Assembly: GCA_030651475.1 (NCBI GenBank)
Contig: JAUSEW010000002.1
Span: 19,927-83,926, forward strand
Direction of reading: 5' to 3'
DNA from: Candidatus Levyibacteriota bacterium
GTDB taxonomy: Bacteria; Patescibacteriota; Microgenomatia; Levybacterales; UBA12049
Length of the DNA stretch: 64,000 nucleotides
Position numbers and translations under genes: made by a program. This document shows positions 1,715 to 58,021 of this stretch, piece by piece. Below the pieces are notes generated by a model. That model searched no databases. It saw only the letters and a program-made list of their open reading frames with translations, and was not told where the DNA came from. The number at the start of each line of letters is the position of its first letter. Positions within the stretch are counted from its first letter, which is position 1.

Positions 1715-2827
1715 ATGTTTTTAACTATTTTGGTTTTCATCTTAATCCTAAGTGTTCTTGTTCTCATTCATGAAGCAGGACATTTTTTTATGGCAAAAAA
1801 GTTCGGAATAAAAGTAGAAGAATTCGGCTTTGGGCTTCCTCCAAGAATTTTTGGCAAGAAAATTGGCGAGACAATTTATTCTTTGAACTGGCTGCCAATC
1901 GGAGGATTTGTCAAACTTTATGGAGAAGACGACGCCGGAGCGGGACGAGTTAAAAATTCAAAGTTAAAAATTAAAAGTGGGAATATTGGTAGGGCGTTTT
2001 TCGCCAGACCTGCTTGGCAAAGAGCAATGGTTATCGGCGCCGGAGTAGCGATGAATTTTTTGCTCGCAGTTGTAATTATCTCATACCTTTTTGGCGTAGT
2101 CGGAGTAGGAATTCCGGGCAATAAAGTAATAGTCGCAGGTGTTGCCAAAGATGCTCCGGCATATAAAGCCGGATTTATGGTCGGAGATGTTATAGAAAAT
2201 ATAAATGGCGTCAAGATTATTGATCCTGGGCAATTAATTGAAATTACCAAAAACCATCTGGGGAAAAATATAACAGTCAAAATTATCCGAGATTCCAAAG
2301 AAAAGATTCTAAATATAGAACCGCGTAAAACTTACCCAACCAATGAAGGACCGATGGGGATTGCCATAACGCAAAATGTCGAGATAAAAAAATATCCTTG
2401 GTATGAGGCGCCAATCGTTGGTACGAAAGAAGCGCTGAAAAATTCCTGGCTTATCATAGAAGGACTGGGAACGGTTGTTTACGGATTGTTTGTTCAGGGA
2501 GCTTTGCCTAAAGACGTTGCCGGGCCAATTGGCATTGCGCAATTAACAGGACAAGTAGTAACTATGGGAACATTGGCAACTCTTTCCTTCGTATCTTTGC
2601 TTTCTCTAAACCTCGCAATTCTAAATATACTGCCAATTCCGGCGTTGGATGGAGGAAGATTATTTTTCATAATTATTGAGGCTGTGACGAGAAAAAAAGT
2701 AAATCAGAGATTTGAAGCTTGGGCGCACACCGTAGGAATGGTCATTCTTCTTACTTTAATTGCGGTTATTACAGTTCATGACCTGATAAGAGTTATAACC
2801 GGTCAGCCAATTCTTCCAAAACCATAG
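1715..2827 (+). CDS. rseP: RIP metalloprotease RseP (site-2 protease, PDZ domain)
   Basis: HEAGH zinc motif in first TM, central PDZ-like region and C-terminal LDGG motif. Confidence 0.85.
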   Translation: MFLTILVFILILSVLVLIHEAGHFFMAKKFGIKVEEFGFGLPPRIFGKKIGETIYSLNWLPIGGFVKLYGEDDAGAGRVKNSKLKIKSGNIGRAFFARPAWQRAMVIGAGVAMNFLLAVVIISYLFGVVGVGIPGNKVIVAGVAKDAPAYKAGFMVGDVIENINGVKIIDPGQLIEITKNHLGKNITVKIIRDSKEKILNIEPRKTYPTNEGPMGIAITQNVEIKKYPWYEAPIVGTKEALKNSWLIIEGLGTVVYGLFVQGALPKDVAGPIGIAQLTGQVVTMGTLATLSFVSLLSLNLAILNILPIPALDGGRLFFIIIEAVTRKKVNQRFEAWAHTVGMVILLTLIAVITVHDLIRVITGQPILPKP

Positions 2828-2842
2828 AATAGTATAGAAAAT

Positions 2843-3649
2843 ATGAACAAAAGTTTGCAAGAACTAAGACAAAGCTTCGTCAGGTTCTTTCTCAAGGCGG
2901 AAAAAGCAAAATTTACAGATAGGGAAGGACTAACTTTGGTTACAGTTGAGTCTCAAACGAAAGGATTAGGGATTGCAAAACAAATATTATATTTGTTAAC
3001 GGAGAAAAACCCAAATACCGTGCTCTTCCTTTCCGGAGGAAAAACGCCGGAAGATTTATACAGGCAGATTACCGAAGAAGCAAGGCTAAAAGTCGAAGCC
3101 GTTGCGATGGTGGATGAACGATTTGGACCCCGTCTGCATAACAACAGCAATGAAAGAATGATTGGGGAAACAGGATTTTGGTCGTATCTTGAAAAGAAGA
3201 AAATTTCGTTCTATTCAATCTTACGATTACACCCCAAGGGTGTAGCCTCAGACTTTGTGAGAGATTATGATAGAAAGGTTAAATATCTTCTAGGGCATTT
3301 TTCAAAAAAGATCGCAGTTTTGGGCATTGGAAAAGACGGTCATACGGCAGGAATAGCTCCCAACAGAAAAGATTTTATTAATCCTCTTTTTTCGAAATCT
3401 TTATTGGTTGGGTCATTTAAGGATCATAGGAGTATGGATGAGGGAGGTTTTGGGACAAGAATAACCTTAACCTTTGAAGCATTAAGGAAAATGGATATAT
3501 TATTGGTGTTGGCTTTTGGAGAAGAAAAAAAAGAGGCTCTTAGAAAAATGTTCAATAGGGGATCATTGGAGGAAATTCCAGCAAGATTTTATACGTCGGA
3601 ACCGCAAATTGTTCAAAGAACTATTTTAATTACGGATCAGAAAGTATAA
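2843..3649 (+). CDS. pgl: 6-phosphogluconolactonase
   Basis: LFLSGGKTP and GIGKDGHTAGIAP motifs of the NagB/Pgl family. Located immediately upstream of zwf. Contains an in-frame palindromic insertion at 3227-3250. Confidence 0.75.
   Translation: MNKSLQELRQSFVRFFLKAEKAKFTDREGLTLVTVESQTKGLGIAKQILYLLTEKNPNTVLFLSGGKTPEDLYRQITEEARLKVEAVAMVDERFGPRLHNNSNERMIGETGFWSYLEKKKISFYSILRLHPKGVASDFVRDYDRKVKYLLGHFSKKIAVLGIGKDGHTAGIAPNRKDFINPLFSKSLLVGSFKDHRSMDEGGFGTRITLTFEALRKMDILLVLAFGEEKKEALRKMFNRGSLEEIPARFYTSEPQIVQRTILITDQKV
3227..3250. repeat. GC-rich palindromic element (family 2) inserted in frame in pgl
   Basis: TTACACCCCAAGGGTGTAGCCTCA. A near-identical copy lies at 57405-57429 in intergenic DNA. Confidence 0.7.
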
Positions 3650-3658
3650 TATAGTTAT

Positions 3659-5122
3659 ATGCAGAGTTCTTTTGTAATGGTTATTTTTGGTGCAACCGGT
3701 GATTTGGCGCAAAACAAACTTATCCCCTCGCTTTTTTCTCTTTTCAAACAAAAACAACTACCAACAGACTTTTTTATAGTAGGTTTTTCAAGAAGAGAAC
3801 TTAGCGACAGCGATTTTGGATCATATTTCAAAGCTCTTCAAGATAAAGAAGGATGGAATGAGTTTGCCAAACATTTATCTTACCAAAAAGGAAGCTTTGA
3901 TGACATAAGCGGATATTCAGAGCTTATAGATAAACTTAAAAAACTTGACGACAAAATCGGCGCGTGCGTAACTCGCTTTTTTTACCTTGCCACTCCTCCG
4001 GATCATTATCAAAATATTCTTAAGTTTTTGCGGGAAACTAAACTATCGGAGGGGTGCGGTCCCCACTTCGCCCCGCTAAGCGGGGCTTCGAGGAGCAAGC
4101 AAGAGAGTAAGTGGACAAGGATAATTATTGAGAAACCTTTCGGTAAGGATCTAGAGACTGCAAAAGCATTGGATATGAAGCTTTCCGAAGTCTTTGAGGA
4201 GAAACAAATTTTTAGGGTGGATCATTACTTGGGTAAAGAAACAATGCAAAATATTATTGCTTTTAGATTTGCCAATGGAATTTTTGAGCCGGTTTGGAAT
4301 AAAAATTTTATAGACCATGTGCAAATTACTTGGGCGGAGGAACAAGGTGTAAAAGAAAGGGGAAATTTTTTTGACGGAGTAGGATTACTTCGGGATGTCG
4401 GACAAAATCATTTGATGCAGCTTGTTACGGCAGTTGCTATGGAAAGCCCGAAGAGTTTTTCCAAAGAAGGAGTCAGAGATGCAAGAGCAGAGGTTATTAA
4501 AAAAATCCGTTGCGTAGAATCAAGTGAAGTTTCGAAAAATATAGTTAGGGGTCAATATGAAAATTATAGATCGGAAAAAAATGTAGCGAAAAATTCCAAT
4601 ACGGAAACATTCGTTGCTATGAAAATTTTTGTTGATACGGATCGGATGGCAGGCGTGCCTTTTTATATAAGAATGGGTAAAAAAATGCCCAAAAATTTAG
4701 TTGAAATATCTGTTGTTTTTATACAGACTTGCCACATTTTGTTTAAAGAATATGGCTGTCCTGAAATAGGAAATGTTTTGGTGTTTAGAATTCAGCCGGA
4801 TGAAGGAATTAATCTTCGCGTCATCGCAAAAAAGCCCGGCGCCAAGCTTTCTCTAGGAACCGTTAATATGAATTTTTCCTACGAAGATCAATTTAGGACA
4901 AATGGAGCAGATGCGTACGAGAAAGTGCTTCTTGATATTTTTGCAGGCGATCAAATGCTTTTCAATAGATCGGATGAGTTGGAAAGTTCATGGGAATTTA
5001 TAACAAAAATTTTGAAAGGATGGGCTAATTTAGGGGTTGAACCCCTAAAGTATAAGGCGGGAACTTGGGGACCGGAAGAGGCGGAGGCGCTAATCGAAAA
5101 AGACGGGAGGAAGTGGATATAA
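3659..5122 (+). CDS. zwf: glucose-6-phosphate 1-dehydrogenase
   Basis: IFGATGDLA NADP motif, IIEKPFG and RVDHYLGKE active-site motifs. Confidence 0.9.
   Translation: MQSSFVMVIFGATGDLAQNKLIPSLFSLFKQKQLPTDFFIVGFSRRELSDSDFGSYFKALQDKEGWNEFAKHLSYQKGSFDDISGYSELIDKLKKLDDKIGACVTRFFYLATPPDHYQNILKFLRETKLSEGCGPHFAPLSGASRSKQESKWTRIIIEKPFGKDLETAKALDMKLSEVFEEKQIFRVDHYLGKETMQNIIAFRFANGIFEPVWNKNFIDHVQITWAEEQGVKERGNFFDGVGLLRDVGQNHLMQLVTAVAMESPKSFSKEGVRDARAEVIKKIRCVESSEVSKNIVRGQYENYRSEKNVAKNSNTETFVAMKIFVDTDRMAGVPFYIRMGKKMPKNLVEISVVFIQTCHILFKEYGCPEIGNVLVFRIQPDEGINLRVIAKKPGAKLSLGTVNMNFSYEDQFRTNGADAYEKVLLDIFAGDQMLFNRSDELESSWEFITKILKGWANLGVEPLKYKAGTWGPEEAEALIEKDGRKWI
4049..4094. repeat. GC-rich hairpin element inserted in frame in zwf
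   Basis: ~46-bp GC-rich segment in an AT-rich gene with internal stem GCCCCGC-TAA-GCGGGGC. Encodes ~15 extra residues (GCGPHFAPLSGASRS) just before the conserved IIEKPFG. Confidence 0.6.
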
Positions 5123-18999: not shown

Positions 19000-19155
19000 A
19001 GGCTTGCTTTATATCATATTGCTTTCAGTTTGTCAAAAAAATGAGAGCTTGGATTAGTTTTTGGCAACTTCCTTTGCTCTTTCGTTCAAATGCCCCAGAT
19101 AAAAAATCGTAGACATTCGTAGGTATTATTACATATTGTTGATATTGACAAGTCA

Positions 19156-19179
19156 CTTTAATAATATATATTATTAAAG
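19156..19179. promoter_or_regulatory. 24-bp perfect AT palindrome overlapping the -10 region and abutting the start codon of the TrpR-like gene
   Basis: CTTTAATAATATATATTATTAAAG, with TTGACA at 19145-19150. ATG at 19181, so the transcript is leaderless. Confidence 0.6.
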
Positions 19180-19180
19180 T

Positions 19181-19624
19181 ATGACACAGATTTCTAAATA
19201 CCCTGTTCATAAAAAAGTTGAAGAGAGAATGTTTGAGGTTCTTCGAGAAACAATCTCTCATCTAAATAACGCAGAAGACATAGAAGATTTTCTAACCGAT
19301 TTCCTTTCTCCTGTTGAAAAGATTATGTTGGCAAAACGGCTTTCTATTGCCATTCTCTTGCATAAGGGATATAAATATGGAACTATAGCGGAAATATTAA
19401 GGGTTACGCCTCCAACAATTGCGACAGTCAGCTTATTGCTTAGATATTCCGGTAAGGGTTACAGAAAGGCTGTAGGGAAAATAGCGGCAAACGAAAAAAT
19501 GAATCTATTTTGGGAAAAAGTGGAGGATATGCTATCTAAAATACCTAATTCAAAAGGGAGCGATTGGGTATATCAGAAGAGAGAATACGAGAGAAAGAAA
19601 AGCGTCCGCAAAAAAGCTTTTTAG
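19181..19624 (+). CDS. TrpR-like DNA-binding protein (YerC/YecD family)
   Basis: LSPVEKIMLAKRLSIAILL and GYKYGTIAEILRVTPPTIATVS helix-turn-helix. Confidence 0.7.
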   Translation: MTQISKYPVHKKVEERMFEVLRETISHLNNAEDIEDFLTDFLSPVEKIMLAKRLSIAILLHKGYKYGTIAEILRVTPPTIATVSLLLRYSGKGYRKAVGKIAANEKMNLFWEKVEDMLSKIPNSKGSDWVYQKREYERKKSVRKKAF

Positions 19625-19632
19625 AATACTCA

Positions 19633-19656
19633 CTTAAATAATATATATTATTTAAG
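19633..19656. promoter_or_regulatory. second 24-bp AT palindrome, near-identical to 19156-19179
   Basis: CTTAAATAATATATATTATTTAAG, upstream of ORF 19741. Confidence 0.55.
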
Positions 19657-19740
19657 TATTTGAGACGTTGGAGTTTTTGAAATGATTAGGGTAGAATCTA
19701 AAATAGAGGATAATTGGGATTATAGGGTTTGGTTTTATTT

Positions 19741-27323: not shown

Positions 27324-28109
27324 ATGACAATGCGACACATTGAAAGCAAAGAAGGATTAGGAGAATTCGTTGGGGATCCCAATGGCGATAAAGCCAAATT
27401 AGCAATAACTCTCATAGAGGGCGCAAGAAAATGGAGGGAGACATTTGGAGATATTTCTTTGCCATCTGTTACAGCTTCAGTTGAAGTAAAACCATTTTCT
27501 CCAGAAGCAGTTACTAATTATTGGCGAACAAAATTACAAGCAGATGGTAAAAGAATAGGACTTTCTATTTCCGTGCCAGATTGTAGTTGGACAGAAGCAG
27601 AAATAAGAAAGCCAATGGTAGATGTTAAAGGAAACGAAGTTCCTTCAATGTTAGTTTATGTTCCGCAAGAGCTTATGGGAAAAGAAGGATTAGTAAGATT
27701 AGGACAGATGTATCCAAAGATGAATAACTGGTCTGTTCAAGAAGACACTAGCGTGCAAAATAGTCCTGATGCAAACAAAAAAGGCGGATGGGTTAAAGTA
27801 GAAGCAATTGTTGATGCCCCAAATCTTAATACTACTCAGGAAGATCTTGAACAGCATGCCAAAGATAAAAAATATTTCGCACAAACATTAAATACTTTTA
27901 TTCTTGCTTCTCAAGCAAATAAAGATTTAACAGGACGTTACTTAGATGAAGGATCGACATGGTCTCGTTTGCTTGGTTCTCGTCGCGCGAGCGGTGTGGT
28001 TCATGCCGACTTCGGTTCGGGTGGGTACTTGTTTGTCGGTTGGGGTCTGGGTCCGCAGGGTCACGGTTCGGGCATAGGCGGGCGTTTTGAAGAAGTGAAG
28101 AAAGCTTAA
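27324..28109 (+). CDS. DGR variable (target) protein, C-terminal CLec/FGE-like variable region
   Basis: C-terminus carries the VR (..GSTWSRLLGSRRASGVVHADFGSGGYLFVGWGLGPQGHGSGIGGRF..). Confidence 0.8.
   Translation: MTMRHIESKEGLGEFVGDPNGDKAKLAITLIEGARKWRETFGDISLPSVTASVEVKPFSPEAVTNYWRTKLQADGKRIGLSISVPDCSWTEAEIRKPMVDVKGNEVPSMLVYVPQELMGKEGLVRLGQMYPKMNNWSVQEDTSVQNSPDANKKGGWVKVEAIVDAPNLNTTQEDLEQHAKDKKYFAQTLNTFILASQANKDLTGRYLDEGSTWSRLLGSRRASGVVHADFGSGGYLFVGWGLGPQGHGSGIGGRFEEVKKA
27971..28097 (+). repeat. DGR variable repeat (VR)
   Basis: 127 bp aligned to the TR without gaps. 26 of 28 mismatches are at TR adenines. Confidence 0.85.
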
Positions 28110-28430: not shown

Positions 28431-28557
28431 GCTTGGTTCTCGTAACGAGAGCAATGTGGTTAATGCCAACTTCAATTCGGATGGTAACTTGAATGTCAAT
28501 TGGAATCTGAATCCGCAGAATCACAATTCGAACATAGGCGGGCGTTTTGGAGAAGTA
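28431..28557 (+). repeat. DGR template repeat (TR)
   Basis: AAY-codon-rich (Asn) copy: ..NVVNANFNSDGNLNVNWNLNPQNHNSNIGGRF.. Confidence 0.85.
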
Positions 28558-32706: not shown

Positions 32707-32724
32707 CTTTGCATTTTCAAAATT

Positions 32725-33507
32725 CTACTTTAATCTTTTTATATCGTCTTCTGTTGGCAGACGAACTCCATGTATCCAGATTGGTTCTTTGCGTTCGTTG
32801 AGAATCTCTAACAATGCACTTTCATAGTCAGGAACAGAAAGAGATAGGGTTCTCGTAAGAAGTTTTCTTTTGATGCTTTGGGCAACTAGTCTAGTTCTAA
32901 TGTTTCTATCCGTTTGTATTTTTTGATTTTGATAATTAGCCCATACTGTTTGCGGAAAGATTAAATAAGAAAACCTATCGCTTGGCACTATATGTTCTTT
33001 TGGTTTTCCTATGGTTTCGAGACCTTCAAATCTTTCTTTTCTGGATGTAAATAAAAAGTGACTCGATTTTTTCATTAATTCATCCATAGTCTCATTAATT
33101 ACAATAAGAAATGAGGAGGATATTCTAGCTTCTAAAATTTCCTTTGCGCCGTTTTTATCCACCTCTTCTTGGGACCATGCGGGTAATTGATCAATTGGGT
33201 CAGGCTCTTTAAGACGATAGCTTGGCCTTTCTGTCATTACCGGCAGAACAGAAATATTCCTAAGATAAAGGGCATCTTCTAAATTGTTAGAAAAAGCTTG
33301 AAGGTTCTCATGCAAGTGCGGAGGGAAAATCAGTCTAAAAGATATAAAATCTTTAGGAGATAGATCTCCAGATCCAAAATATAATGAGCTTTCCCTTCGT
33401 AATCTACCAGCTGATTTAAGGCCATCTTTTAGTATGCTGTTAATAATCTCTGCCCGTTGTGCGGCAACTTCAGCTGTAGCATTAATCTTAGGCAATACTT
33501 CTGACAT
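32725..33507 (-). CDS. hypothetical protein
   Basis: 260-aa ORF. Confidence 0.4.
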   Translation of the reverse strand: MSEVLPKINATAEVAAQRAEIINSILKDGLKSAGRLRRESSLYFGSGDLSPKDFISFRLIFPPHLHENLQAFSNNLEDALYLRNISVLPVMTERPSYRLKEPDPIDQLPAWSQEEVDKNGAKEILEARISSSFLIVINETMDELMKKSSHFLFTSRKERFEGLETIGKPKEHIVPSDRFSYLIFPQTVWANYQNQKIQTDRNIRTRLVAQSIKRKLLTRTLSLSVPDYESALLEILNERKEPIWIHGVRLPTEDDIKRLK

Positions 33508-40652: not shown

Positions 40653-40721
40653 AGATTAATTATACCTTAGTATTTCAAATTATGGTAATACTTTCAAACA
40701 CGGCATTTTATTTAAAAATTC

Positions 40722-40730
40722 TGCTATAAT
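40722..40730 (+). promoter_or_regulatory. extended -10 promoter TGCTATAAT (family AAAATTCTGCTATAAT)
   Basis: TTAAAAATTCTGCTATAATC lies 5-7 nt upstream of the TTG/GTG start of 40737. Confidence 0.5.
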
Positions 40731-40736
40731 CAGGTT

Positions 40737-42343: not shown

Positions 42344-42381
42344 ATCTCGATAGCTTCCAAAAGATTTTAGAATTAAAATTC

Positions 42382-42390
42382 TGCTATAAT
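42382..42390 (+). promoter_or_regulatory. extended -10 promoter TGCTATAAT
   Basis: TTAAAATTCTGCTATAATC. ATG at 42399, about 8 nt after the -10, so the transcript is leaderless. Confidence 0.5.
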
Positions 42391-42398
42391 CTTCAAAG

Positions 42399-52992: not shown

Positions 52993-54135
52993 TTATAATT
53001 CAATAAGTTCTCTTGAGCAACGGGTTAAGAAGCGGGGACCGGATTTTCCTAGGACTACCAAATCTTCAATTCTTACCCCTCCAAATCCGGGAATGTAGAT
53101 CCCCGGTTCTATAGAGAAAACCATATTTTCTTTTAAAATATCTTTCGAAAGGGGAGAAAGGCGAGGAGATTCATGTACCTCAAGGCCAATGCCGTGGCCA
53201 AGAGAATGAGGAATTGTCGGGAATCCTTTCGTAGTAATATAATCTCTGGCGATTTTATCAATTTCGGATGCCTTTATTGCTAATTGCTTCATTGTTAAAT
53301 TGTTTAATTGCTGAATTGCTTTTTGCTGGGCTTCTAGAACCGTTTGGTACATCTTTTTAAATTCTGCATTTGCAGAACCAAAGAAAACGGTTCTTGTCAT
53401 ATCGGAACAATAATTATTCAGTTTCACGCCAAAATCCAGCAATACGATTTGGTCTTTAGCCGTTAGTCTTTGGTCGCTAGCTTGATGGTGGGGGACAGAA
53501 GAATTTTTTCCAAAGGCAACGATAGGAGGAAAAGATATATTAGCCCCCTGTTTTTTGATAAAAAATTCTATTTCAAGGGCAATTTCTTTTTCACTTATTC
53601 CTTCTTTTATTTTCTTTAAAACATATTCAAAAGCTTTGTCTCCCAATTCGCATGCTTTTTCAATTTTAGAAATCTCATCAGGCGTTTTAACGCTTCGTAG
53701 ATTCGAAATACTTAAATGATATATATTATTAAAGTATTTTGACAGCCTTTTGTGTTCTAGAAAACTAATATTGTGACCTTCGAATCCTAATCGTTTTATG
53801 TTATTTTTTTGTGTAAGATTTTTTATTGCTTCTCCAAAAGAAAGTTTTGAAGAAATTTCAATAAGTTCAAAATCTTTGACTTGTTTTTTAACGGCTTCAG
53901 AATATCGCCCATCGGTAAGAATATACCCCAAAACCCCAGGGGTTCCGTGCGTCAACCCCTGGGGTTGAGCCACGATTAAAAGGAAAGCTTCCCGTTCATC
54001 CTTGGAGAAATTGGAAAATCCTGTTAGGTAAGTAATGTTAGGAACGGAGGAAATGAGTAGTCCGTCAATGTTCTTATTTAGCATTAAACTTTTTAAATTT
54101 AAGAGACGATTATTCATAAATTTAACATGTTTCAT
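52993..54135 (-). CDS. pepP: Xaa-Pro aminopeptidase (M24B)
   Basis: HGLGHGIGLEVHE and pita-bread fold motifs. In-frame palindromic insertion near the N-terminus. Confidence 0.85.
   Translation of the reverse strand: MKHVKFMNNRLLNLKSLMLNKNIDGLLISSVPNITYLTGFSNFSKDEREAFLLIVAQPQGLTHGTPGVLGYILTDGRYSEAVKKQVKDFELIEISSKLSFGEAIKNLTQKNNIKRLGFEGHNISFLEHKRLSKYFNNIYHLSISNLRSVKTPDEISKIEKACELGDKAFEYVLKKIKEGISEKEIALEIEFFIKKQGANISFPPIVAFGKNSSVPHHQASDQRLTAKDQIVLLDFGVKLNNYCSDMTRTVFFGSANAEFKKMYQTVLEAQQKAIQQLNNLTMKQLAIKASEIDKIARDYITTKGFPTIPHSLGHGIGLEVHESPRLSPLSKDILKENMVFSIEPGIYIPGFGGVRIEDLVVLGKSGPRFLTRCSRELIEL
53932..53966. repeat. duplicated 13-bp GC palindrome inserted in frame in pepP
   Basis: AACCCCAGGGGTT-ccgtgcgtc-AACCCCTGGGGTT encodes ..QPQGLTHGTPGVLG.. 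Confidence 0.65.
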
Positions 54136-55994: not shown

Positions 55995-57323
55995 ATGGCA
56001 AACATTAAAGTTCCTCCGCATAATGACGAAGCAGAAGAAAGCGTCTTGGGCGCTATACTTCTTGACAAGGATGCGGTAAGTACGGTTTCTCAAATTATCT
56101 CCCCAATGGATTTTTATAACCAGATAAACGGAATAATTTTCGATTCCATGCTCTCTTTGTATGAACAAGGAAAACCGATTGACATTCTGACTCTTAAAAC
56201 TCATCTCAAAAAACAAAAAGGCGAGACGAAGATTGAATCTTCTTATCTTACGGAATTGGTGAATGCTGTTCCAACCGCAGCCAATGTAGAGCATTACGCA
56301 ACAATTATTAAGGAAGCATCTACGAAAAGGTCGCTAATTCAAACAGGCTCACGAATGGTGGAAATGGCTTTTATGGAAGACAAAGAAGTGGGCGACCTTT
56401 TAAATAAAGCGGAATCTTCGATATTTGCTATTTCTCAAAAAAGTTCGCTTAAAACTTTTATTCCGCTTAAGGAAGCTCTTGCGGAAAGTTTTGATAGGAT
56501 AGATGAGCTTCATAAAAAAGGAGTAGGGTTTAGAGGGCTTCGGACAGGATTTGTTGATTTGGATAATATGTTATCCGGAATGCAGCCGTCAAACCTGATA
56601 ATTCTTGCGGCAAGACCAGGACAGGGAAAAACCGCGATGGCTGTAAACATCGCCCAAAATGTGGCGGTAATTGATAAAAAAGCAGTAGGAATATTTTCTT
56701 TAGAAATGAGCAAGGAAGAGTTGGTAGACAGGCTTTTGGTTGGACAGGCAGATGTGGATGCTTGGAGAATAAAGACAGGCAAACTTTCAGAAACAGATTT
56801 TACTAAACTTTCGCGCGCGATGGGAGAATTGGCAGATGCGCCGATTTTTATAGACGATACTCCGGGAATTTCAATGTCCGAAATGAGAACCAAAGCCAGA
56901 AGGCTCCAGCTTGAACACAACGTATCTTTATTTATAGTTGATTATTTACAGCTTGCCGATCCGGGAAGAAGATATGACAACAGGGTACAGGAAGTTTCTA
57001 TTGTTTCCCAATCGCTGAAAAATTTGGCAAGAGAATTAAAGGTTCCTGTTCTCGCAGTTTCCCAGCTTTCCCGTGCAGTTGAGCATAGAGGAGAGAAGAG
57101 GCCCCAGCTTGCGGATCTAAGAGAGTCAGGGGCTATTGAACAGGATGCGGACGTGGTAATGTTTCTGTATAGGCCCGAAGATGAATATGCTCCGACAATG
57201 CAAACCAAACTTTTGGTGGCAAAGCATCGAAACGGGCCTTTGGGAGAGATAGATTTACTTTTCCGCGGAGACAGGGTAAAATTTTATAATGTTGACAGAA
57301 AACGAACCGAAGAATCCGCCTGA
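55995..57323 (+). CDS. dnaB: replicative DNA helicase
   Basis: N-terminal PHNDEAEESVLG, Walker A GQGKTA and RecA-like core. Confidence 0.9.
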   Translation: MANIKVPPHNDEAEESVLGAILLDKDAVSTVSQIISPMDFYNQINGIIFDSMLSLYEQGKPIDILTLKTHLKKQKGETKIESSYLTELVNAVPTAANVEHYATIIKEASTKRSLIQTGSRMVEMAFMEDKEVGDLLNKAESSIFAISQKSSLKTFIPLKEALAESFDRIDELHKKGVGFRGLRTGFVDLDNMLSGMQPSNLIILAARPGQGKTAMAVNIAQNVAVIDKKAVGIFSLEMSKEELVDRLLVGQADVDAWRIKTGKLSETDFTKLSRAMGELADAPIFIDDTPGISMSEMRTKARRLQLEHNVSLFIVDYLQLADPGRRYDNRVQEVSIVSQSLKNLARELKVPVLAVSQLSRAVEHRGEKRPQLADLRESGAIEQDADVVMFLYRPEDEYAPTMQTKLLVAKHRNGPLGEIDLLFRGDRVKFYNVDRKRTEESA

Positions 57324-57404
57324 ACTTGCCTCGATTGAAGAAAAGTTAGCAGCAATTTCTGCAAAACTCGGCGCTTAGAACAGGCTTTTTAGACTTTGTA
57401 TAGC

Positions 57405-57429
57405 TTTACACCCCAAGGGTGTAGCCTCA
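57405..57429. repeat. GC-rich palindromic element (family 2), intergenic copy
   Basis: TTTACACCCCAAGGGTGTAGCCTCA lies between convergent dnaB and the hydrolase gene. Confidence 0.7.
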
Positions 57430-57433
57430 AACT

Positions 57434-58021
57434 TTATAGTGAAAGCTTGAGGAGGGAATTTAAAACGATGGGGAGTTTGACTACATCATCTTCATCGGTA
57501 AAATGTCCCCTTGCGTGTTCAATAATTGTTTTTGTTCCCAATTCTTTTTCAAATATTTCTTTATTGTCAAGCGGAACATAAGGATCATTATCGGAGAAAA
57601 TGGCAATACTTTTAGGAAGATGAGATTTAACTTTTGCTAAATTTATAGAAGTATTTAGCCATGGAGATATAATTTCTTTTTCTTCATCCGTTAGGTTTGC
57701 GAGAGTAGATTCTCCAGTTGAAAAGAAACCGGCAACGAAAACTGTTCCGCCAACTTTTATATTTTCAGGTAATTTTTCTAGAAATCTTAAAATCGTTTGG
57801 CATCCTACGCTATGTCCTACGAAATAAGTTTTGTCATCGGGTTTGTTGACGGATTCATAAAGACAATCAACCCAGTCTTTGATTGTAGGTTCTTCCGGAT
57901 GAGGCATTACTGGGATATAAACTTCAAAATTATTTTTCTCAAGTTCCTTTTTAAGCCAAGAATACCAATCTCTTTTTGGATGTCCATCCCATCGGTGAAC
58001 AATAAAAACTCGCTTCTTCAT
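57434..58021 (-). CDS. alpha/beta hydrolase (RBBP9/YdeN-like serine hydrolase)
   Basis: VGHSVGC nucleophile elbow. Confidence 0.7.
   Translation of the reverse strand: MKKRVFIVHRWDGHPKRDWYSWLKKELEKNNFEVYIPVMPHPEEPTIKDWVDCLYESVNKPDDKTYFVGHSVGCQTILRFLEKLPENIKVGGTVFVAGFFSTGESTLANLTDEEKEIISPWLNTSINLAKVKSHLPKSIAIFSDNDPYVPLDNKEIFEKELGTKTIIEHARGHFTDEDDVVKLPIVLNSLLKLSL

Follow-up and report, generated by a model that had tools for sequence, protein, structure and literature searches.

The locus examined here raises the question of why a short palindrome should be present twice in one stretch of bacterial DNA, once in frame in a housekeeping gene and once between two genes. The stretch analyzed, a 64-kb segment from a metagenome-assembled genome of Candidatus Levybacteria (Patescibacteria, within the Candidate Phyla Radiation) that is referred to throughout as the window, possesses two exact occurrences of the 24-mer TTACACCCCAAGGGTGTAGCCTCA, at positions 3227–3250 and 57406–57429, both on the plus strand. 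A sequence-only reading of this DNA had described two near-identical 24-bp copies. The match is in fact exact and non-random, and the coordinates given for the first copy were correct; the second copy starts at 57406 rather than at 57405. Chance was rejected as an explanation, since no matches to a 24-mer are expected at random and none occurred in 100 dinucleotide shuffles. The window contains no third site at up to three mismatches, and no more diverged copies were recovered from it by mismatch search, hairpin regular expressions, or an nhmmer profile.

The two copies and their hairpin

Resemblance between the copies extends beyond the 24-mer. Identity reaches 30 nt with a single mismatch (3227–3256 and 57406–57435) and may run slightly further if a 3-nt indel is allowed, and alignment to the family profile covers 35 nt of either copy (3222–3256 and 57401–57435). 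The first copy, TACGATTACACCCCAAGGGTGTAGCCTCAGACTTT (3222–3256, plus strand), lies in pgl, a 268-aa open reading frame (ORF) of the Glucosamine_iso type that encodes 6-phosphogluconolactonase (PF01182; 2843–3649, plus strand). Position 3227 is the first position of a codon, which confirms an earlier claim that the copy is coded in frame and translates as LHPKGVAS. The second copy, together with its conserved flanks (57385–57437, plus strand), is located between the stop of dnaB (55995–57323, plus strand) and that of a convergent, minus-strand Ser_hydrolase gene (PF06821; 57434–58021), whose stop codon (57434–57436) abuts the 3′ tail of the element.

The core of the element is a hairpin in which the arms TACACCC and GGGTGTA form a 7-bp stem around a 3-nt CAA loop. 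In copy 1, this core occupies 3228–3244 (stem 3228–3234 and 3238–3244, loop 3235–3237), and in copy 2, it occupies 57407–57423 (stem 57407–57413 and 57417–57423, loop 57414–57416). Its DNA folding energy is −5.6 kcal/mol (z = −3.4). The element thus has the form expected of repetitive extragenic palindromes (REPs), which are short (20–40 nt) imperfect palindromes able to form a hairpin. The full form, of ~45 nt, can be written as TCCGCAGGTGTA-N9-ACACCCCAAGGGTGTA(G/A)YC..., and a longer form, TCCGCAGGTGTA-N9-ACACCCCAAGGGTGTAGCCTCAAAAC, is seen at intergenic copies; overall, elements range from 24 to 47 nt. Among 20 distinct copies, pairing at the five inner positions of the stem is nearly invariable. 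The C-G pair that closes the loop is replaced by T-A in four of the 20 and is left unpaired in none. These four copies come from three kinds of locus: two lie in pgl, one is intergenic, and one sits downstream of dnaB. The stem is kept by compensatory changes, which indicates that the hairpin is maintained.

Several features bear on how the element should be classified. The tetranucleotide GTAG overlaps the 3′ arm of the hairpin in both window copies (GGGTGTAGCC), and the canonical layout of a 5′ GTAG followed by a hairpin is absent from both. In the full-length relatives L016, L020, and L026, GGT-GTAG-CT sits 5′ of an extended imperfect hairpin, and other relatives have GTAA or GTAC at the GTAG position. 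Neither window copy is part of a REPIN doublet; each is a single short hairpin whose extended arms pair no further than 7 bp. Nor does the element resemble an intrinsic terminator, as no terminator-like site was found in 57200–57600 and the window copy there has no U-tract; a TTTTT run follows only one copy, a diverged element located right after dnaB in L022. [quoted passage not shown] DNA uptake sequences (DUS/USS) occur about once per kb genome-wide, a density far from the two copies present in 64 kb. The element is neither an uptake sequence nor a terminator, and it does not belong among MITEs that generate target duplications or among the Rickettsia palindromic elements (RPEs).

A flanking motif, GACTTTGT, had been noted on opposite sides of the two copies, and its placement was correct: on the plus strand, it follows copy 1 at 3251–3258 and precedes copy 2 at 57392–57399, where it sits 6 nt 5′ of the copy and is conserved in a close relative (L002). 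The accompanying proposal of a target site or terminal repeat is not supported. The first six bases of the downstream instance are the element’s own RACTTT tail, and RACTTT recurs after the core in several copies as the 3′ tail of one sub-family. The upstream instance is confined to the dnaB site of the window and L002 and is not found at other copies, so that GACTTTGT stands on both sides of the element solely at that site. Since the upstream instance occurs only there and no consistent direct repeat exists, the motif does not represent a target-site duplication general to the family; the upstream instance may derive from a proximal GGTGTA arm that has decayed or from the tail of an adjacent copy now lost. 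In all, GACTTTGT occurs three times in the window versus two expected.

Other origins for the pair of copies were also considered and rejected. The copies are not attL and attR sites of a 54-kb island, as the DNA between them consists of syntenic housekeeping genes (RRF-M50-pgl-zwf in relatives) and each copy is conserved independently in other genomes. The dnaB site does not hold a pgl pseudogene remnant, since similarity ends at ~40 nt. A phage origin was rejected following a search of viral contigs that gave no match, and a known RNA family was rejected because the window has no match at the Rfam gathering threshold; the intergenic region yields just a meaningless miRNA match (E = 0.68).

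The window also contains repeats of other kinds. A second, AT-rich palindrome family, ACTTTAATAATATATATTATTAAAGT, is present at 19153–19182, 19630–19659, and 53708–53737. Two of its copies bracket a TrpR-like HTH gene (19181–19624, PF01371), the upstream one just after a TTGACA hexamer, and the third falls within an M24 peptidase gene. The three sites are candidate operators of the TrpR-like regulator. The M24 peptidase gene also contains a different, perfect palindrome of 17 nt, TCAACCCCTGGGGTTGA (53951–53971), and a similar sequence, CAACCCCTGGGGTCG, occurs in the N-terminal part of pgl in L001 (1846–1866) and L021; with 14 of 21 positions matching, the similarity is probably coincidental to the element family. 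The 17-mer AAAATTCTGCTATAATC has two exact copies (40715–40731 and 42375–42391) and one near copy (32719–32735), includes a hexamer resembling TATAAT, and possibly represents a shared promoter. Finally, a 126-nt direct repeat with 79% identity (27971–28096 and 28431–28556, 460 nt apart) is probably an intragenic duplication.

Copies in related genomes

A 20-nt core of the element, CACCCCAAGGGTGTAGCCTC, was scanned against 185,579 species genomes (one per species) and then against metagenome contigs. Only two exact matches were found among the species genomes: one in the pgl of a Patescibacteria metagenome-assembled genome whose Pgl protein is 53% identical to that of the window, and the other in the orthologous dnaB–hydrolase spacer of L002. 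In metagenomes, exact matches occur in 14 contigs or loci and in many contexts. Taken over Levybacteria and Patescibacteria contigs, the core occupies at least 12 contexts, four of which are intragenic. For instance, pgl carries the element in at least five genomes, the UvrC gene of L014 (PF08459) encodes it in frame as LHPKGVAS, and the PfkB kinase gene of L017 encodes it in frame as SHPKGVAS. The fourth host is a hypothetical gene, at orthologous loci in L018 and L025, where the element lies on the opposite strand and is read as EATPLGCNR. Four of the six reading frames through the core are open, which helps explain the survival of the element in ORFs. Among intergenic copies, those downstream of dnaB, known from four genomes (the window, L002, L022, and L023), are all oriented alike; others are found in L013, L016, L019, and L020, as well as in L024, where the copy is located 44 nt upstream of a Y1_Tnp ORF. 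Copy number is low throughout, with two copies in the 64-kb window and one or two exact 20-mers per contig of 0.6–0.72 Mb.

This distribution bears directly on the simplest account of the two copies, namely that they reflect a private micro-duplication involving pgl (in either direction) or a trans-acting antisense RNA and its target in the regulation of pgl. The window does contain just two copies, one of them in pgl, and a minus-strand run-out transcript from the hydrolase gene would be fully complementary to 30 nt of pgl mRNA. However, contexts that have nothing to do with pgl number at least 12, and on a single 724-kb contig the pgl copy (L010) has decayed while the intergenic copies (L020 and L024) are intact. 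Neither a promoter nor a terminator indicative of a small RNA was found. Such a duplication or antisense pair is largely refuted by the distribution of the element, and we regard it as highly improbable.

The sequence-only reading had named, as the combination that would tell against a mobile palindrome, absence of the element elsewhere together with a pgl segment that was ordinary conserved coding sequence. Instead, the same 20–36 nt were recovered from many related contigs, both within unrelated genes and at intergenic sites. Its description of a dispersed, mobile palindrome that tolerates ORFs is therefore borne out as to dispersal and presence in ORFs; mobility is something we infer, and the window copies themselves are old and retained at orthologous sites in relatives. 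No recent transposition event or clean pair of empty and filled sites was seen in the contigs compared.

The intergenic copy offers the clearest view of such retention at the nucleotide level. A 53-nt block (57385–57437) is identical between the window and the orthologous site of L002, barring a 15-nt tandem duplication in the latter, whereas the neighboring sequence is 75% identical and dnaB 89%. Identity of the block amid diverged flanks points to selection on copy 2.

Some further observations concern the region downstream of dnaB. The tandem duplication in L002 (1242–1290) consists of TATAGCTTTACACCC present twice over the left arm of the element. L002 is labeled “uncultured Gammaproteobacteria”, yet its dnaB is 89% identical to that of the window, and it is probably mis-binned. 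A small ORF of 29 aa (MLTENEPKNPPELASIEEKLAAISAKLGA) follows or overlaps the end of dnaB in the window (57290–57378). Its counterpart in L002, on the reverse strand just after dnaB, is ~60 aa long, with a Pro/Gly-rich middle and a C-terminus, IEEKLAAIS, common to the window version, which looks like a deletion derivative of the longer one. The gene convergent on dnaB is a different one in every genome (encoding a hydrolase, a NUDIX protein, or a protease). In L022 (reverse strand, 2350–4270), the 2 kb that follow dnaB contain three element copies. The first of these, which is diverged and has a G-T wobble and a T-run, directly follows the dnaB stop; the other two are direct copies that bracket a gene for a 360-aa SDH/ClpP-like protease beside a tRNA gene, in a cassette-like arrangement.

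Copies within genes illustrate how the element is accommodated in proteins. When the UvrC of L014 is compared with the solved UvrC of T. maritima (2NRT), a clean, in-frame insertion of seven residues (lhpkgva) is seen in otherwise collinear proteins. The situation in Pgl is less simple. Alignment of 30 orthologs places the element in a surface loop of hypervariable length between FYSIL and DYDRKV, and about half of the aligned Levybacteria-type orthologs do not have the motif. Others possess HPKGVAS or variants such as LHPMGVAL, LHLEGV, FHPKGG, and RHPGVAST, and in the second-closest group, YAPNGV is accompanied by a long additional insert. The loop of the window protein is ~3 residues longer than that of motif-less Levybacteria-type orthologs and is the same length as that of P. 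falciparum Pgl; this small net change in length suggests replacement of loop sequence rather than simple insertion. Aligning Pgl orthologs, a check proposed at the outset, thus showed that the motif is not an ordinary conserved stretch.

The Pgl loop holds three left-arm sub-families in different lineages. The left arm TACGATTA is found in the window, L001, L003, and L007. In L032, the arm is TTGTATTCA, 34 of 36 nt are identical to the pfkB copy of L017, and the core is displaced five codons further on relative to the window. The third arm, TTAGCCTTA, occurs in L008 and resembles the intergenic copy of the window. The presence of different sub-families in one loop argues for repeated insertion or conversion at a tolerant site.

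Selection on the pgl copy may act largely at the protein level. Identity at synonymous sites in this copy (6/7, 6/8, and 7/7) is not significantly higher than the gene background of 0.54–0.76, a comparison that involves few codons. The Pgl of L010 retains HPGVAS, but the third position differs in each of the six codons and the hairpin is gone, a pattern indicating that in this lineage selection is on the peptide. Such data raise the possibility that HPKGVAS is simply an ancestral Pgl peptide whose resemblance to a palindrome is coincidental, a view with which the P. falciparum loop length, the different codons of L010, and the lack of significantly raised synonymous conservation all agree. It is nevertheless scarcely credible. 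The window pgl copy is identical over 35 nt to the L018 copy in an unrelated gene, and coincidence is refuted by this and the L032 pgl–L017 pfkB identity noted above; the absence of the motif from roughly half of the aligned Levybacteria-type orthologs and the chance expectation of zero for the 24-mer stand against it as well.

The Y1 transposase gene and its flanks

The ORF adjacent to the L024 copy matches Pfam Y1_Tnp (PF01797, “Transposase IS200 like”) with 32.8 bits against a cut-off of 23. Its HUH motif is HFH, and its tyrosine lies in RYIHLNP. The sole NCBIfam match is to NF047646, REP-associated tyrosine transposase (E = 2e-11), with a score of 44 bits that falls below the equivalog cut-off of 80. 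The protein family, ~215 aa in length, has >7000 relatives, the top matches being 62–73% identical and several of them annotated as Levybacteria or Patescibacteria. Sequence and profile searches of solved structures (PDB) gave only a weak match, to the HUH region of ISDra2 TnpA, and an AlphaFold model of the protein built from 20 close homologs was poor (pLDDT 49). The 64-kb window itself has no Y1 transposase gene, as judged by tblastn, and its source protein (MDO8620687.1) belongs to a different assembly from the RAYT-bearing contigs read here.

In all three independent genomes fetched (L026/27, L028/29, and L030), the Y1 gene is flanked on both sides by inverted copies of the element, with the TCCGCAGGTGT end facing the gene on each side. 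One flanking copy lies no more than ~60 nt from the start codon; the other comes immediately after the stop. In L030, a third full copy lies 1.9 kb from the gene, and in L028, both flanking copies have the loop variant CGA in place of CAA. A stretch of ~22 nt between the upstream element and the Y1 start (AAATTTGTGATTTAATGATTGT-ATG) is also conserved in three genomes (2480–2500 in each of L026, L028, and L030) and may be a 5′ UTR or regulatory signal.

The Y1 gene behaves like a domesticated gene and is apparently single-copy. Each Y1 protein cluster was seen at one locus only in the neighborhoods fetched, and two genomes share the same pheT-tnp-PBP synteny, with Y1 proteins 73% identical versus 38% for PheT, values that fit vertical inheritance. 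A REPtron is defined as a conserved single Y1 gene (RAYT) that carries inverted, dispersed palindromes on both flanks and shows housekeeping-like behavior (PMC3116915, PMC5581495, PMC6006769). An apparently single, conserved Y1 gene, inverted palindromic flanks, and housekeeping-like behavior together give the present locus that layout.

An ordinary, autonomous insertion sequence of the IS200/IS605 type might also be envisaged, with the window copies as solo ends or MITE-like (PATE) derivatives. Pfam places the protein in Y1_Tnp, ISDra2 TnpA is its only match among solved structures, and the elements are subterminal hairpins beside the gene. Against this, the ends of IS200/IS605 elements are not inverted repeats, and the inverted flanks seen here correspond to the REPtron or TIRtron layout. 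Occupation of the same pheT-PBP locus in two genomes with such unequal identities, restriction of each protein cluster to one locus, the RayT family as sole NCBIfam match, and the absence of tnpB from the fetched neighborhoods likewise make an autonomous insertion sequence unlikely.

The two 24-mers of the window are very likely the core of a REP-like family of Levybacteria and related Microgenomates that, in related genomes, is arranged in inverted orientation around a RAYT-type Y1 gene, forming a REPtron. By analogy to E. coli TnpA-REP and the IS200/IS605 transposases, the Y1 enzyme would recognize the hairpin in single-stranded DNA and would cut and rejoin beside it, thereby seeding copies elsewhere. 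In genomes with almost no intergenic space, surviving copies would be those at the 3′ ends of genes, such as between convergent genes downstream of dnaB, and others would survive in frame in tolerant protein loops. The window copies are probably under selection, since they are kept at orthologous sites and their hairpin is held by compensatory changes; they would be retained as recognition sites of the transposase-derived protein or as DNA or RNA hairpins and, in Pgl, also as a peptide.

How far such sites still move is a separate matter. The copies could instead be host-functional sites that are not, or are no longer, mobile, serving as protein-binding sites or as hairpins that form or stabilize mRNA 3′ ends, with the transposase-like protein domesticated for work at them. 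Consistent with this are the very low copy number per genome, the orthologous conservation of both window copies, the identity of the 53-nt block where flanks are 75% identical, the compensatory changes in the stem, the much greater conservation of the transposase than of PheT, and the uniform orientation of the element downstream of dnaB in four genomes. Yet the in-frame presence of the element in four unrelated genes and of different sub-families in one Pgl loop is hard to explain without a process of insertion or conversion, and the window copy has neither a U-tract terminator nor an Rfam match. Host function of this kind overlaps the REP/RAYT explanation rather than excluding it, and we consider it possible on present evidence, at rather less than even odds. 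A related and more specific proposal, in which a domesticated RAYT-type protein acts with a few fixed, functional hairpin sites (replication, transcription, or RNA-processing signals) that are not selfish DNA, and in which intragenic copies are doubly constrained by hairpin and peptide, is speculative and somewhat doubtful. If true, one of the smallest bacterial genomes would contain a REP/RAYT system that is minimal and integrated into the host.

On the basis of the window alone, the conclusion would be a modest one, namely two copies of a known type of repeat. The wider interest is that a strongly conserved RAYT-like gene with very few hairpins, in streamlined Candidate Phyla Radiation (CPR) genomes with scant non-coding DNA, would offer a simple system for studying the role of the protein and its sites in the cell. 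In addition, repeat DNA can yield short, conserved peptides in housekeeping enzymes of CPR bacteria (LHPKGVAS in Pgl, UvrC, and PfkB), and repeat-derived peptides of this sort matter for annotation and for alignment-based phylogeny.

Comparison with known systems

Several families of palindromic elements share some properties with the element described here. Rickettsia palindromic elements do so in outcome only, since they too are palindromes found between genes as well as in frame in housekeeping ORFs, where a short peptide is added in tolerant regions. They are unrelated in sequence, belong to another phylum, and are larger (100–150 bp for RPE-1 versus 24–47 nt), and the present element is not a member of that family. 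To our knowledge, no dedicated transposase is known for RPE-1.

Similarity to IS200/IS605 elements lies in the Y1/HUH transposase fold family and in subterminal hairpins on single-stranded DNA. Hairpins of this kind are recognized and cleaved in single-stranded DNA by E. coli TnpA-REP and by the transposases of IS608 and ISDra2 (PMC3479197, PMC6006769). In contrast to IS200/IS605 elements, which are multi-copy mobile units often accompanied by tnpB, the Levybacteria gene is apparently single-copy, syntenic, and strongly conserved.

TIRtrons are arranged in the same manner as REPtrons but with longer inverted-repeat flanks (Di Nocera et al. 2013, PMC3733652). The Levybacteria system resembles TIRtrons and their TIRYT genes in that a RAYT-like gene is bordered by ~45-nt inverted repeats that contain the palindrome, and in that the family is moderately or weakly abundant. 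The TIR motif GGGGWSAS, however, is not exactly matched, GGGGTGTA being found in the Levybacteria element, and the TIRtron class was described in Acidobacteria, Stenotrophomonas, and others rather than in CPR bacteria (PMC3733652).

The closest parallel is with REP/RAYT systems such as E. coli TnpA-REP/RayT and the REPINs of Pseudomonas. Most known examples come from Proteobacteria whose genomes are large and carry hundreds of copies. Like them, the Levybacteria element is a short, dispersed, imperfect palindrome that is inverted around an apparently single-copy and vertically conserved Y1/HUH gene, and its copies occur at gene 3′ ends. Its occurrence within genes also has precedent, as REPs inside genes, often those for DNA repair (PMC3733652), and in-frame REP insertions (PMC6006769) have been reported. 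Differences are nonetheless considerable. The stem is far shorter (5–7 bp with a 3-nt loop), only a handful of copies exist per genome as opposed to the tens to hundreds of REP families, and REPIN doublets are absent from the window. Both window copies have GTAG within the 3′ arm of their hairpin, not 5′ of its foot, and the Y1 protein, at ~215 aa, scores under the NCBIfam RayT cut-off. The hosts, too, are different, being CPR/Patescibacteria with genomes of ~0.7–1 Mb, and the element is deeply conserved across them.

No report combining RAYT genes or palindromic elements with CPR/Patescibacteria was found in the literature searched. As far as found, then, this is a REP/RAYT-type system of a known kind that has apparently not previously been described in these ultra-small bacteria. 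It is unusual among such systems in its very low copy number, in how deeply the two window copies are conserved at orthologous sites, and in the repeated occupation of one Pgl loop by different sub-families.
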